Assembly (NCBI GenBank): GCA_002717445.1
Contig: PBDY01000019.1
Location: forward strand, 36,568 to 100,567
DNA from: Gammaproteobacteria bacterium
GTDB taxonomy: Bacteria > Pseudomonadota > Gammaproteobacteria > Steroidobacterales > UBA11654
Length of the DNA: 64,000 bases
Direction of reading: 5' to 3'
Numbering within the stretch: the first letter of the stretch is position 1; every line of letters starts with the position of its first letter. The notes beneath the pieces were generated by a model that searched no databases, was not told the origin of the DNA, and saw only the letters and a program-made list of their open reading frames with translations. The translations under genes were made by a program, and so were the position numbers. Positions 26,465-34,072 of the stretch are shown piece by piece.

Positions 26465-26923
26465 TTATCTCGAATCTTTAAACTGCTTTTCTGTAATTTC
26501 TCTTCTCTCTTGTGCTTCAAGAGTGTAAGTTGCAACGGGTCTTGCCTCTAGACGTTTTAATCCAATTTCTTCACCCGTTTCCTCGCAATAACCAAATGTC
26601 CCTTCGTCTATTTTTACTAGTGAGATTTGTATCTTTCTAAGCAGTTTTCTTTCTCTGTCACGTGTTCGAAGTTCTAATCCAAATTCTGATTCTTGAGTAG
26701 CTCTATCATTAGGATCAGCAAGATTGTTACTATCCTTTTTCAAATGCTTCACGGTTTCTTCAGCTTCGATCTCTAACTGCTGTTTCCATGCCAAAAGAAG
26801 CTTTCTGAAATGTGTTTGCTGCGGTTTAGACATGTACTTTTCTCGAGCTTTCTTTTTATAGGGTTTTATCCCAAACTGTTCGAGTAATGAACCGTATTCT
26901 TTTTTTGTTTTTTTTCGTGGCAT
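26465..26923 (-). CDS. dksA: RNA polymerase-binding transcription factor DksA (one-cysteine type)
   Basis: Coiled-coil tip ADPNDRATQE (DxxDxA), ELRTRDRERKL, GYCEETGEEIGLKRLEARP. Confidence 0.95.
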   Translation of the reverse strand: MPRKKTKKEYGSLLEQFGIKPYKKKAREKYMSKPQQTHFRKLLLAWKQQLEIEAEETVKHLKKDSNNLADPNDRATQESEFGLELRTRDRERKLLRKIQISLVKIDEGTFGYCEETGEEIGLKRLEARPVATYTLEAQERREITEKQFKDSR

Positions 26924-26995: not shown

Positions 26996-27382
26996 TTACT
27001 TAATTTTATTCTTTGGTGTCCATTCAGTGTTTTGGTGTTTGAATTCAATATCGGTGTAGATTCCACCGCGAACATTAAACTTTGACTTAAAATGTAAGTA
27101 CCTGGGCGTTAGCAATTCCATCAAATGTTCATATATACGACCTGTTACAGCTTCGTGGTAAGCACCTTCGTCACGATATGATGCCATGTACAACTTTAGA
27201 GATTTTAGTTCAACACAGTGCCTATCAGGCACATACTCTAGAAACATTTTTGCAAAATCAGGCTGCCCCGTCATTGGACACAAACAAGTAAATTCAGATA
27301 TTTTTGTCTTGATTAAGAAATCATGTTCGATATTTGGATTATCAAATCTTTCCAAAATGTTGTGTCTACTTTTTTGATTCAT
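26996..27382 (-). CDS. queF: NADPH-dependent 7-cyano-7-deazaguanine reductase QueF (single T-fold type)
   Basis: EFTCLCPMTGQPDFA, QueF motif ELKSLKLY, HE, RGGI. Confidence 0.94.
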   Translation of the reverse strand: MNQKSRHNILERFDNPNIEHDFLIKTKISEFTCLCPMTGQPDFAKMFLEYVPDRHCVELKSLKLYMASYRDEGAYHEAVTGRIYEHLMELLTPRYLHFKSKFNVRGGIYTDIEFKHQNTEWTPKNKIK

Positions 27383-27466
27383 TCTTTTGCCTCATTTTTT
27401 CAATTTATTAATGTATATAAGAAACAATATATTTTAAAATGAACCATTATCATTTAACAGTCTTGT

Positions 27467-30186
27467 ATGCGTCTCAGTAAAATCAAACTTTCAGGCTTCA
27501 AAACGTTCGTTGAACCGACAACACTAACTTTGCCATCAAATCTAGTGGGAATAGTGGGTCCAAATGGTTGTGGTAAATCAAATGTTATAGATGCGGTTAG
27601 ATGGGTTCTTGGAGAATCATCGGCAAAATATCTTAGAGGCGAATCTATGTCCGATGTTATTTTTAATGGATCCGCATCTAGAAAACCTGTCAGCAATGCT
27701 TCGATTGAGCTTTTTTTTGATAATTCTGAAAAGAAGATTGTCGGAGAATTTGCAAAATACAATGAAATATCCACTCGAAGAGTCATTACCAGAGATGGTC
27801 AGTCAGAATATTACCTAAATGGTACGAAGTGCCGACGCAAAGACATTACCAGTCTTTTCTTAGGTACAGGCTTAGGCCCTAGAAGTTATGCCATCGTTCA
27901 ACAAGCCATGATCTCAAGCTTGATTGAAGCCAAGCCAGATGAAATGAGGGTATTTTTAGAAGAAGCATCGGGCATTTCAAAATATAAACAAAAAAGAAAA
28001 GAAACAGAATCCAGAATTAAAAACACGAGGGAAAACCTAAATCGTCTAAATGATCTCAAAGAAGAAATTGACAAACAGATAAAACGACTCAAAAAACAAG
28101 CGAGAGATGCAGAAAGATATAAAGATCTTAAAAGCAGAGAAAAAGACATTGAGGGAGAAATCATTTACTGCAAAATCACGGACATCAATAAAAGTCTAGA
28201 ACAGAATGAATCTGAGGCAAAATCTTACCGAGATACTTACGATGATCGACTGACAAATCTAAGAAAAGTCGAAGCAGATATAGAAGAACTCCGCATAAAA
28301 AATAATGAAATTAACGAGTCATTCAACTCAAAACAGAAGGATCATTTTGAAATTCAAGCCAATATCGCAAGAATCGAACAATCCATCGAGTACGAAAAAG
28401 AATTAGAATCTCAGAAATCGGTCAATGCAAAAGAAATCAAAAAAGAACTTGATCGCATAAAGACTGAATATTCTGCTGACAAAATTGAGCTTGATCGAAT
28501 CAACGCGGACCTTGAATTAAAAAATAAATCGAATGATCAAAACCAAATTGCTTTATCGCAATTAGAAAACGATCTAGACACGACATCTCAGACGCTTATA
28601 TCAGAAGAAAATCTGAATGAGGATCTAAAGACTGAACTCAATGAACTTAAGACCACATTTGAAAGTGAAACAATTAGGGTCACTCTCTTGGAGAAACAAT
28701 CAAGTGAGCAGATCAAACAAAAAGAAATCATCATAACAGTGCATCAACTAAAAGATGGTTTTTTAGACTTAAAGTCTCTACTAGAGGAATCTATATCGGC
28801 TTTCAGTACCGATACTAATACAAACATTAATAACCACATACAAGAACTTGAAGCGAAAATTAATCGATTATCTTCCGAATATTCAGACACTGAAATAAAA
28901 ATATCTGAGAATGAGAAACAACTTCTTAAGACCAAAGAAGTTATAACCAGTACAAAAAAAATAAAAGATGCTTTGGAAGTGAAAAAGAATGCTTCGGATC
29001 AAAAAAAGACGGATCTTGCTAACCTAAGAAATACACAGAATCAAAAACTAATGAACCTTAGGGAAAGGGTTCAAGATTCAGAATTAAAGACAGAGTCCTT
29101 AAAAACCTCACAACAGGGCCTTCAAACAGCCATAGCAAGATTAGAGGCTCAAATGAATCAGCTGAAATCTCGCTCTCTAGAACTATCAGCAAAAGAAAAT
29201 CCTCAGAAATCAATCAATGAGGATCAGAAATTGGAATTGGAATCTCTATTGAACAAGAGTCTTGAAAGTGAAAAATCATTGGAAGCAGAAAGAAAACAAC
29301 AAGAAGAAATGCAGTCGCTTTTAAGAAATCAAGAAGTAGACCGAACAAATATCAATGCATCAGTCAATCAAGCAAGGGAAGACTTGGAAAAATTTAAGTT
29401 GAAGCAAAAAGAATATGAAGTAAGAAAAGATTCTCTTAATGAACAGTTAAATGACATGGGACTAAGCTTTGATGCAGTGGACGAAAAATCAACCAAAAAA
29501 GCGATCACACTTGATTCACTATCTTCAGAACTTGAAAAGATATTGAGAGGAATCGATCGATTAGGCGCTATCAATCTAGCAGCCGAAGCAGAATTCAAAG
29601 AAGAAAGCACTCGAATGGAAAAACTTGACGAACAGTTTGATGACCTTAATAGAGCGCTTGAAACTCTTACGGGTGCAATAAAGAAAATCGATGATGAGTC
29701 GAAATCACGATTCAGCGAAACATTTGAAAAAGTAAATAAAGGTCTATCAAAACATTTTCCTAGACTCTTTGATGGCGGAAAAGCTTACCTAGAACTCGAA
29801 GACAATGATGCGCTCAATGGTGGTGTATTTGTCATGGCAAGACCTCCTGGAAAAAGGAACAGCAATATACATCTTCTTTCTGGAGGCGAGAAAGCTCTCA
29901 CAGCTGTAGCACTCTTATTTTCAATATTTGAATTAAACCCAGCACCATTCTGCCTCCTGGATGAGGTTGACGCACCCCTGGATGACGCAAATGTCAGTAG
30001 ATTTTGTGAGATTGTAAAAGAAATGAGCAGCAGCGTTCAATTTGTTGTCATTACACACAATAAAACAACAATGGAACTGACTAAACAATTGATCGGCGTG
30101 ACAATGAGTGAACCCGGTGTATCTAGATTGGTCTCGGTTGACCTTGATGAAGCAATAGAATTATCAGACCAAAATGAAACGACCTG

Positions 30187-30187
<1 letters not shown>
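27467..30187 (+). CDS. smc: Chromosome segregation ATPase SMC, short form with no recognisable hinge
   Basis: Walker A GPNGCGKSN, DAVRWVLGE, LGAINLAA, signature LSGGEK, Walker B FCLLDEVDAPLD, H-loop ITH; smc-zipA-ligA synteny. Confidence 0.93.
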
Positions 30188-33478
<3,291 letters not shown>

Positions 33479-33492
<14 letters not shown>

Positions 33493-34072
33493 AAATATTG
33501 TCGAAGCCTTACTGTTATCTTCAGGTGAACCTCTGTCTGCAGACAGAATACATAAAATCATCAATTCAAAAAAATCATGCACTAAGGCTGACATACTCGA
33601 AACAATCGATGAACTGAATATCGAATACAATGAAAAAGAGATAGAAGTAACTAGAGTTGCGAGTGGCTTTAGAATCCAAGCAAAATCATCAATTAATGAT
33701 TTTCTCAATATTATTTACGCTGAGAAAACACCAAGATACTCAAGAGCCCTCATGGAAACGCTTTCCATCATAGCCTATAAACAGCCAGTCACAAGGGGAG
33801 ACATTGAATCCATCAGAGGGGTATCGGTAAGCAGTAGCATCATGAGAACACTAACTGACCGCAATTGGATTAAGATTGTTGGTTATAAGGATGTCCCCGG
33901 TAAACCTGCCATGTTTTCAACCACGAATGAATTTCTTGATTATTTTGGTTTAGAAAAACTAACCGAGCTGCCTGACCTCCCAGATATTAAGGAACCTGAA
34001 AATCTTAATTTAGATCTAGAACCTGAAACGTTAAATGAAGTGACCGCAGTTTCATCTGATCAGTTGAATTAA
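33479..34072 (+). CDS. scpB: Segregation and condensation protein B
   Basis: VEALLLSSGEPLS, METLSIIAYKQPVTRGDIESIRGV, FLDYFGL. Confidence 0.96.

Follow-up and report, generated by a model that had tools for sequence, protein, structure and literature searches.

A hinge-less Smc encoded in one gene string with ScpA and ScpB in a gammaproteobacterial family related to Woeseiaceae

Introduction

Two Smc molecules are normally joined through the central Smc hinge, while the apex of RecN is a helical dimer. The DNA analyzed here (a stretch of 64,000 nucleotides from a gammaproteobacterium, hereafter the window) carries an smc gene whose product of 906 aa appeared from its letters to have neither a hinge nor a zinc hook. 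This raised the questions of whether the gene encodes a genuine and working Smc and, if so, how its arms end and whether the apex of the complex would be closed. The host is an open-ocean bacterium that is uncultured, and all genomes concerned, including the 20 species-level genomes of its family, were MAGs or single-cell assemblies.

Gene structure and identity of the Smc protein

The smc gene (27467..30187, + strand) was a single unbroken ORF of 906 codons plus stop. Its N-terminal ATPase head half (aa 1–170; 27467..27976, +) carried Walker A at aa 31 and the Q-loop at aa 144, and its C-terminal half (aa 736–906; 29672..30184, +) carried the signature motif, reading LSGGEK, at aa 804, Walker B at 830, the D-loop at 835, and the H-loop at 862. 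The head motif set was complete, bearing out the uninterrupted SMC frame with all head motifs described in an earlier note on this DNA. Between the heads lay an N-terminal arm helix (aa 171–443; 27977..28795, +) with a short break at aa 316–321, and a C-terminal arm helix (aa 454–735; 28826..29671, +) with loops at 664–681 and a break at aa 572–584 that pairs with the one in the N-terminal arm. They were separated by the polar midpoint turn that the note had pointed out, SAFSTDTNTN (aa 444–453; 28796..28825, +), which is indeed flanked by hydrophobic helices, IIITV...SLL (421–439) and INNHIQELEAKI (454–465). Residue counts agreed with the reported scarcity of Gly, Pro, and Cys: within residues 171–660 there were three Gly (230, 431, and 551), one Pro (579), and one Cys (235), and the whole protein had Cys only at 35, 122, 235, 829, and 847. 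Neither a CxxC nor a GX6GX3GG motif was present anywhere in the protein.

The protein scored 844.7 bits against TIGR02168 (SMC_prok_B, an equivalog model) with a curated cut-off of 567.35, matching profile positions 1–416 and 738–1181 and leaving 417–737 unmatched. Pfam SMC_N matched with an E-value of 1.2e-64, and the head matched the B. subtilis-type Smc head structures 5xg3 and 3zgx (~E 1e-108). Rad50 models gave 35–70 bits vs. cut-offs of 700–1087, and RecN, itself a protein of ~550 aa, was absent from the families listed for the 906-aa protein. The Pfam scan for the hinge domain (SMC_hinge, PF06470), for which no match had been anticipated, returned none in the protein even at E ≤ 1, and none anywhere in the window's own genome. 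The protein therefore descends from Smc without having its canonical architecture.

In an alignment with seven Smc proteins of the same order, one block of ~260 residues was absent. It spanned the hinge of 166–173 aa and took in a further ~47 residues from each of the two neighboring arm strands; Smc proteins of the sister families are 1163–1170 aa long. The loss of the hinge and adjacent arm proposed in the earlier note was therefore upheld, while its size, given there as ~270 aa, had to be corrected.

Identity of the 906-aa protein to gammaproteobacterial Smc was 42–57%. A tree constrained to group the family with the Smc of its own order had a log-likelihood 15.8 above that of the free tree (p-AU 0.871; 21 rows, LG+G4). 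The order dksA-smc-zipA-ligA was common to the window and its hinge-bearing Woeseiaceae relatives, from which it follows that, as judged from sequence and synteny, the gene is the bacterium's own smc and a true orthologue of the sister-family Smc.

Gene neighborhood and predicted partners

Upstream of smc, dksA (26465..26923, − strand) served as a synteny marker, and queF (26996..27382, −) was divergent from smc; the same queF/smc divergent pair occurred at locus L071 of a second hinge-less lineage (see below). In the Woeseiaceae locus L052, dksA lay directly upstream of a full-length smc, and the order dksA-smc-zipA-ligA was that of the window. Downstream of smc, the window had a short zipA-like gene encoding 161 aa (30187..30672, +; PF04354 ZipA_C, E 2.6e-6, 27.8 bits), at the position taken in locus L052 by a 218-aa ZipA scoring 117 bits. 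It was followed by ligA, encoding an NAD-dependent DNA ligase (30669..32675, +), by scpA, encoding the kleisin partner of Smc (274 aa; 32668..33492, +; PF02616, E 4.7e-34), and by scpB, encoding the kite protein (197 aa; 33479..34072, +; PF04079, E 1.7e-48). Both scpA and scpB share the gene string with smc and were intact by Pfam, as previously claimed, and ScpA and ScpB are the predicted partners of the hinge-less Smc. Among the 20 family genomes, scpA was present in 19; ParB was found in the window's genome and in only 11 of the 20.

Distribution, integrity, and selection

A match to smc was obtained in all 20 family genomes, comprising 15 complete ORFs of 905–911 aa, four genes cut by contig ends, and one with an in-frame TAA (genome G008, 77% complete). 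Same-length orthologues, for which the earlier note had suggested a search, thus fill the family, and among the best 120 database clusters 118 were 905–906 aa long and none had PF06470. The exact 906-aa protein was found on 52 contigs. No hinge encoded elsewhere was detected: a hinge profile built from the sister families matched none of the 20 family genomes (seven of them at least 90% complete) vs. all five control genomes.

That the missing hinge stems from faulty assembly or from a gene in decay is hardly credible. The in-frame stop in one of the 20 genomes and the MAG or single-cell origin of all of them would be compatible with it, but the same architecture in every family genome and in the 118 clusters excludes chance or assembly error. 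A DNA contig from another run covered 27300–30400 without a gap and differed at three bases, and the contigs of four runs showed neither joints nor indels over smc. The tip was crossed unchanged by independent DNA contigs and by one RNA-library contig, and the assembly collapse that the earlier note had named as a possible refutation was not borne out. Evidence that smc is expressed is weak, consisting of assembled contigs from a single study's RNA libraries, in which DNA may be present; parts of smc lacking RNA-contig cover in runs X15 and X16 prove nothing, and in the RNA-library runs X17–X20 only 0.11–0.15 of the sampled words were present.

Nor did the gene appear to be under relaxed selection, which the earlier note had named as a possible objection. 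Estimates of dN/dS were 0.00–0.05 for the heads (0.014–0.052 for the C-terminal head half) and 0.05–0.22 for the arms, and the head region was nearly invariant across the family. Among 17 family sequences, the N-terminal arm had no indels, and the C-terminal arm had a single-residue indel at aa 677 as its only one; the sole insertion in the arm region, seven residues after aa 447 in one member, fell exactly at the tip. From these substitution patterns, selection on Smc is judged to be strongly purifying, not relaxed, and the sequence data, within their reach, refute the reading as an artefact or remnant. The 906-aa protein is very probably a working hinge-less Smc.

Its work could nevertheless differ from that of a canonical Smc. 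Instead of extruding loops or entrapping DNA, the protein could have taken on a changed, simpler job as an ATP-dependent clamp or tether for DNA, e.g., in repair or sister cohesion, partly standing in for a RecN that was not detected. At its cut-off (407.85), the RecN model TIGR00634 matched in none of the 20 family genomes; the smc gene itself made up six of the seven weak RecN matches listed, the family smc genes scoring 19.5–30.6 bits. MukB was not found in the window's genome either, its N-terminal domain PF04310 matching neither the genome nor the 906-aa protein, and the account of hinge-less SMCs published in 2025 speculated on a different function or DNA binding (PMC12153180). We nevertheless consider a changed job improbable: the condensin-specific partners ScpA and ScpB have been kept near smc, the nearly invariant heads score as Smc rather than as Rad50 or RecN, and the arms strictly keep the same length, which a continuing role in force transmission would predict (PMC5344682).

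Predicted arm and tip

AlphaFold2 placed helices at residues 170–315, 322–443, 448–571, and 585–663, with a turn at 444–447. Confidence was high in the arms (pLDDT mostly 84–93) and at the tip (82–90); the heads were poorly modeled (pLDDT below 50), owing to an alignment of only 17 sequences, and the full-length model had a pTM of 0.30. In the model, the arm would be one long helical hairpin with a four-residue turn and no globular apex, in line with the fold-back proposed in the earlier note. Arm length was estimated at ~275–288 residues of antiparallel coiled coil, just outside the functional windows of 253–267 and 321–344 aa (91-aa period) in B. subtilis (PMC5344682), although lengths of arms with and without a hinge are not directly comparable.

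The conserved hydrophobic residues near the tip formed a single a/d seam (422, 425, 428, 432, 435, 439, 443, and 446 on one strand; 454, 458, 461, 465, 468, and 472 on the other). Within the family, I422, F432, and L435 were invariant, and the density of strong hydrophobics reached 0.30–0.41 around residues 430–470 vs. ~0.25 along the arms, while the sequence of the tip loop was variable. For the tip, 11 pairs were computed and ten gave a finite dN/dS: eight of these lay at 0.11–0.20, and the two most divergent, in which dS was near saturation, at 0.44 and 0.62. A PDB sequence search with aa 391–490 gave a best E-value of 0.28 and no match to a solved dimerization module, and no Cys/His pair for a metal site was present at the tip. 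For an arm-tip dimer (aa 340–550 in duplicate, with the alignment of the family), the prediction gave scores of 0.34, 0.34, and 0.30 against 0.00 for the controls; the pass mark being 0.42, this bears on tip pairing in neither direction.

The single seam, the variable loop, and the insertion exactly at the tip appear to favor an open tip. The joint reading that we tentatively prefer, at a little short of an even chance, is that the bacterium's own Smc had its hinge deleted in frame and acts as an Smc–ScpAB organizer with such a tip. The in-frame internal deletion would have taken the hinge of ~169 aa and the flanking arm residues, leaving an ABC-type ATPase head on an antiparallel coiled coil whose far end is a simple helical hairpin. 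Smc–ScpAB would have retained ATP-driven chromosome organizing, with two Smc molecules held by ATP-dependent head engagement and the ScpA kleisin linking one molecule's neck to the other's cap. The strictly length-matched arms of the two molecules may touch side by side, the tip being a solvent-exposed turn rather than a stable dimerization domain, and DNA would sit in the kleisin/head compartment and between the zipped arms, not in an apex-closed ring. Lateral pairing of the arms is plausible given that they are otherwise free of indels and that coiled-coil association is reported to contribute considerably to Smc dimerization in B. subtilis even when the hinge is impaired (Minnen et al., 2016, PMC4785775).

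The invariant residues and raised hydrophobicity would also fit a small interface at the tip. In the same hinge-less Smc–ScpAB motor, the hairpin tips could associate in a small all-helical bundle that closes the apex of the ring, as a minimal replacement of the hinge with a role analogous to that of the zinc hook in Rad50 or the helical apex in RecN. Purifying selection on the tip in the unsaturated pairs agrees with such a bundle, as do experiments in B. subtilis: Smc whose hinge had been exchanged for a flexible linker was expressed yet did not localize to the chromosome (PMC4785775), while an unrelated dimerizer, the zinc hook of Pyrococcus Rad50, replaced the hinge and supported growth (PMC5344682). 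Failure of the linker and success of the zinc hook suggest that apex dimerization of some kind mattered in B. subtilis, the one system tested. We regard a tip bundle as possible but somewhat less likely than an open tip, since the only conserved hydrophobic seam visible is already needed by the hairpin's own two helices, the loop varies and tolerates seven extra residues, and the tip has neither a metal pair nor a resemblance in sequence to a solved dimerization module.

Comparison with known systems

Like a canonical Smc of the B. subtilis type, the 906-aa protein has the head motifs, antiparallel arms with paired breaks, ScpA and ScpB, ParB in the genome, and the smc-zipA-ligA position; unlike it, it is hinge-less, with arms shorter by ~47 residues per strand and a tip that is a turn of 4–7 residues. 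With Rad50/SbcC and RecN it has in common an ABC head on a coiled coil ending without an SMC hinge, but it has no CxxC, scores far below their cut-offs, and has ScpA and ScpB rather than a nuclease as partners. Engineered B. subtilis proteins in which heads and arms were kept and the hinge was removed or replaced, i.e., Smc(deltaH) (Minnen et al., 2016, PMC4785775) as well as Smc(Zh) and mini-Smc (Burmann et al., 2017, PMC5344682), are of the same design, and arm length matters in them. In contrast to the 906-aa protein, which is natural and maintained by selection, the deltaH protein did not load onto the chromosome (PMC4785775).

Whether hinge-less SMCs had been described before was a question raised in the earlier note. 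Sussfeld et al. (2025, Environ Microbiome 20:65, PMC12153180) reported an oceanic "hinge-less" SMC cluster that was assigned to Actinomycetes and branched with actinobacterial seeds; its members were abundant and also present in GORG-Tropics single-cell genomes. They share with the 906-aa protein an SMC head and a coiled coil without hinge or CxxC, but differ in their actinobacterial assignment, and the available part of that account contained no ScpAB context, selection analysis, or synteny. The relatives of the 906-aa protein being gammaproteobacterial, its lineage is probably separate from that cluster as there described, although the data of that paper may include members of this family. 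No description of a gammaproteobacterial hinge-less Smc was found in the literature, the 2025 ocean paper being the only one found on hinge-less SMCs.

A second hinge-less gammaproteobacterial Smc, of 944 aa, was found in genomes G215 and G368 (1.1 Mb). It was collinear with residues 1–904 of the 906-aa protein at 42–43% identity, had no PF06470, and likewise had a divergent queF; it differed in its tip sequence, in extra residues in both arms, and in having no zipA between smc and ligA. Smc trees, including the 21-row LG+G4 tree, did not discriminate between one shared hinge loss and separate losses in the two lineages, and the LigA of the window was 47% identical to that of the 944-aa lineage and 49% to that of Woeseiaceae, which did not place the lineage. 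The single-match genomes of the class survey that were looked at (G102, G212, and G379; G433 was left out) contained gene fragments.

Implications

Hinge-less Smc proteins are now on record in the Woeseiaceae-related family, the 944-aa gammaproteobacterial lineage, and the published actinobacterial cluster. A broader proposal would be that hinge loss is recurrent and selected in genome-streamlined ocean bacteria, that the Smc–ScpAB apex is never covalently or stably closed in them, and that the motor does not require a closed hinge; taken as a whole, we consider this somewhat unlikely. If true, a motor with an open apex might be able to get past obstacles.

The value of the finding is reduced by the earlier report of hinge-less ocean SMCs and by the organisms being uncultured. 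In this family, evolution appears to have removed the hinge and kept the rest, i.e., heads, length-matched arms, ScpA, ScpB, and gene position, and close hinge-bearing relatives are available for comparison. Because the protein is conserved and has been kept with its partners, nature has provided a test of the hinge's purpose, one that bears directly on whether a closed apex is required for loop extrusion and DNA entrapment.

Architecture of the Smc protein

The ORF at 27467–30187 (+) comprises 906 codons in one unbroken frame, and its product is a genuine Smc orthologue, conserved and lacking the hinge. An earlier note, made from the DNA alone, had reported intact ATPase head motifs, and the full set was found. 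Its residue counts were all right: Gly 230, 431, and 551, Pro 579, and Cys 235 are the only Gly, Pro, and Cys between aa 171 and 660, the sequence SAFSTDTNTN lies at aa 444–453, and the claimed absence of CxxC and of GX6GX3GG was borne out across the whole protein. SMC_N matched at 1.2e-64 in Pfam, and SMC_hinge (PF06470) gave no match even at E ≤ 1. The curated bacterial Smc model TIGR02168 was passed with 844.7 bits (cut-off 567.35). Its alignment consists of two pieces (profile positions 1–416 and 738–1181), and therefore nothing in the protein corresponds to 321 positions of the profile in the hinge region.

Alignment of 15 Smc proteins from the family of the window's genome (20 genomes) with seven from different families within the order Steroidobacterales (1011–1170 aa) showed a single block to be absent from the family proteins. 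This block spans the 166–173-aa hinge, including the conserved W..AVE..LG motif, and takes approximately 47 residues from each adjoining arm strand; the family proteins are shorter by approximately 260 aa than the 1163–1170-aa relatives. The 1011-aa Smc of another member of the order (genome G040; L032 625–3657, −) has kept an alignable hinge on arms clearly shorter than those of the 1163–1170-aa relatives; its SMC_hinge fell short of E ≤ 0.001 in Pfam, and it forms a long branch in the tree.

A search for a hinge encoded elsewhere gave no PF06470 match anywhere in the window's genome (84% complete), and matches in 11 of 14 control genomes. A sensitive profile made from seven sister-family hinges matched none of the 20 family genomes, seven of which are at least 90% complete, and matched all five sister-family genomes outside its build set (E 1e-55 to 1e-62).

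Conservation and sequencing support

The family members are recorded as uncultured marine Gammaproteobacteria, some named 'uncultured Woeseia sp.' and single-cell genomes among them, and their genomes represent two genera and are 59–95% complete. All 20 contained smc collinear with the window copy, at 59–86% identity. Fifteen copies were complete ORFs of 905–911 aa, four ended at contig edges, and one contained a TAA. The latter (G008, a 77% complete MAG; L018, contig C16 6901–9609) is an otherwise collinear hinge-less smc with one in-frame TAA, which may stem from a sequencing error or mark a pseudogene restricted to that genome. Among the remaining 21 genomes of the order, 16 (including G035, flagged as unpublished) had open frames of 1164–1270 aa, each matched in two pieces; one frame was of 1037 aa, one was truncated at 648 aa, and three genomes were without a strong match.

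In a search of 5.8 billion proteins, 118 of the 120 best clusters were of 905–906 aa, and the remaining pair (846 and 857 aa) came from 3–4-kb contigs; none of the 120 contained PF06470, and the identical Smc protein was present on 52 contigs. The whole family was a single 906-aa entry among 1.84 billion representatives of 50%-identity clusters; the remaining 149 of the top 150 representatives were of 990–1220 aa and matched in two to three pieces. The three shortest of these included two with a Pfam hinge (1003 and 990 aa) and one without at E ≤ 0.001. This 1071-aa near relative (P0212), approximately 100 aa below the usual length, may represent another reduced or divergent hinge.

Sequencing runs were also inspected. 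One DNA contig spanned 27300–30400 gap-free with three base differences, a contig from another run covered 28381–28903 with zero differences, and no joints or indels were seen in the four runs examined. Because both DNA runs were flagged as possible sources of the assembly, they constitute weak independent support; the independent support for the architecture is the survey of family and order genomes together with the search of 5.8 billion proteins. In two RNA-library runs from one study, the fractions of sampled words present were 0.61 and 0.46; at ≥99% identity, contigs from these runs reached 25 and 19 of the 30 bins, and a 158-nt contig (28729–28886) crossed the tip. Since such libraries can contain DNA, this gives a mere hint of transcription of smc.

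Orthology and a second hinge-less lineage

The closest full-length Smc proteins belonged to Woeseiaceae and Steroidobacteraceae MAGs. The gene order dksA(−), smc, zipA, ligA of a Woeseiaceae locus with a hinge-bearing smc recurs in the window as dksA(−), queF(−), smc, zipA-like, ligA, and from this common order it follows that the hinge was lost in place.

A survey of 400 gammaproteobacterial genomes (G321, G076, G169, and G331, flagged as unpublished, being used for the tally only) yielded a match to Smc at E ≤ 1e-30 in 361. Nearly all showed two matches flanking a hinge-sized gap; seven single-match genomes were noted, namely the window's genome, G215, G368, G102, G212, G379, and G433. The matches in G102, G212, and G379 were rejected as gene fragments. 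The matches in G215 and G368 (1.1 Mb) were collinear over Smc residues 1–902 or 1–904 and correspond to 944-aa hinge-less Smc proteins (L071 1817–4651 and L072 1555–4386, both −) from which PF06470 is absent. These share 42–43% identity with the window's Smc and differ from it in tip sequence and in additional residues in both arms. In their loci, queF is divergent from smc, as in the window, and ligA comes directly after smc, with no zipA between.

A 42-row Smc tree united the family with the 944-aa lineage (SH-aLRT 81), both being long branches flagged as deviant in composition, and a 21-row LG+G4 tree likewise united them with support of 84. An alternative tree placing the family with the Smc of its own order had a log-likelihood 15.8 higher (p-AU 0.871). 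Independent hinge losses in the two lineages would explain the data no less well than one shared loss.

Partner genes

Downstream of smc lie a zipA-like ORF, ligA, scpA (32668–33492, +), and scpB (33479–34072, +), the ORFs from smc to scpB, as delimited here, abutting or overlapping by 1–14 nt. The zipA-like ORF (30187–30672, +), between smc and ligA, encodes 161 aa with a ZipA_C match of 27.8 bits (E 2.6e-6) and is shortened compared to the ZipA of a Woeseiaceae relative (218 aa, 117 bits). scpA was found in 19 of the 20 family genomes, the exception being G002, whose contig ends within smc; in several genomes it lies only approximately 700 nt downstream of smc. ParB was found in the window's genome and (TIGR00180) in 11 of the 20 family genomes, including four of the seven that are at least 90% complete. 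This patchiness reflects either uneven assembly near the origin or the true absence, in some members, of the protein that usually loads Smc. None of the 20 had a RecN (TIGR00634) match at the cut-off, and this streamlined family may have lost RecN; of the seven weak matches listed, six were to smc and one was to a 349-aa frame at another place in G001. No MukB was found in the window's genome.

Selection, predicted shape, and proposed mechanism

Pairwise Nei-Gojobori dN/dS (11 pairs) was 0.00–0.05 for the N-head, 0.014–0.052 for the C-head, and 0.05–0.22 for the arms. At the tip (416–460) it was 0.11–0.20 in pairs with unsaturated dS, and 0.44 and 0.62 in the two most divergent pairs, where dS is near saturation. 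Among 17 family sequences with identities down to 60%, there were nine gap columns in total: seven from one tip insertion in one species, a single column at residue 677, and another at the C-terminus. Indels are therefore absent from the arms. The tip insertion (G019; L025 1501–4233, −), seven residues after the position of residue 447, is the sole arm-region insertion in the family. Smc arm length is functionally tuned in B. subtilis, with a 91-aa period (PMC5344682), which the lack of arm indels fits. Taken together, the analysis showed an intact Smc head-arm-hairpin under selection, with kleisin and kite partners, and a decaying gene or an artefact is extremely improbable.

An AlphaFold2 model built from the family alignment of 17 sequences contained helices at 170–315, 322–443, 448–571, and 585–663, joined at the tip by a four-residue hairpin turn (444–447; tip pLDDT 82–90), with no globular apex. 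The helix breaks at 316–321 and 572–584 are equidistant from the tip. Head pLDDT was below 50 and the whole model had a mean pLDDT of 70.2 and a pTM of 0.30, the poor modelling of the heads being attributed to the shallow alignment.

The hinge-less Smc would presumably still run the Smc ATPase cycle with ScpAB, and a changed function is unlikely. We tentatively favour a tip that is open, lacking stable dimerisation at the hairpin apex, with the arms zipped laterally between two Smc molecules. The conserved hydrophobic positions beside the turn form one a/d seam per helix, as the hairpin itself requires, and the tip loop is variable in sequence and alone in tolerating an insertion; both were counted for this reading. 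In B. subtilis, coiled-coil association adds considerably to Smc dimerisation even without a working hinge, according to excerpts of PMC4785775. It is also conceivable, with somewhat lower probability, that a small helical dimer forms at the tip: I422, F432, and L435 are invariant, and hydrophobic density is 0.30–0.41 near the tip vs. approximately 0.25 along the arms. In its favour, too, B. subtilis Smc with a linker in place of the hinge did not localise to the chromosome (excerpts of PMC4785775), and replacement of the hinge by a zinc hook allowed growth (PMC5344682).

Relation to known hinge-less SMC proteins

Hinge-less SMC as a kind has been described recently, and the window's Smc is an added case. 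According to the portions of the article available, Sussfeld et al. 2025 (PMC12153180) reported an abundant 'hinge-less' SMC cluster in Tara Oceans data, without CxxC, modelled with AlphaFold, assigned to Actinomycetes, and found in GORG-Tropics genomes; partner genes, selection analysis, and synteny are not given for the cluster in those portions. The literature, as far as these portions and the other sources go, yielded no account of a hinge-less Smc from Gammaproteobacteria, and the family could be among the sequences of that study. With hinge-bearing clusters excluded, a protein atlas contained the 905-aa cluster to which the window's Smc belongs (243 members), together with other short SMC_N clusters, among them one of 736 aa mostly from Actinomycetota; these are no more than leads. 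The value of the hinge-less Smc of this family is that of a natural experiment on the hinge.
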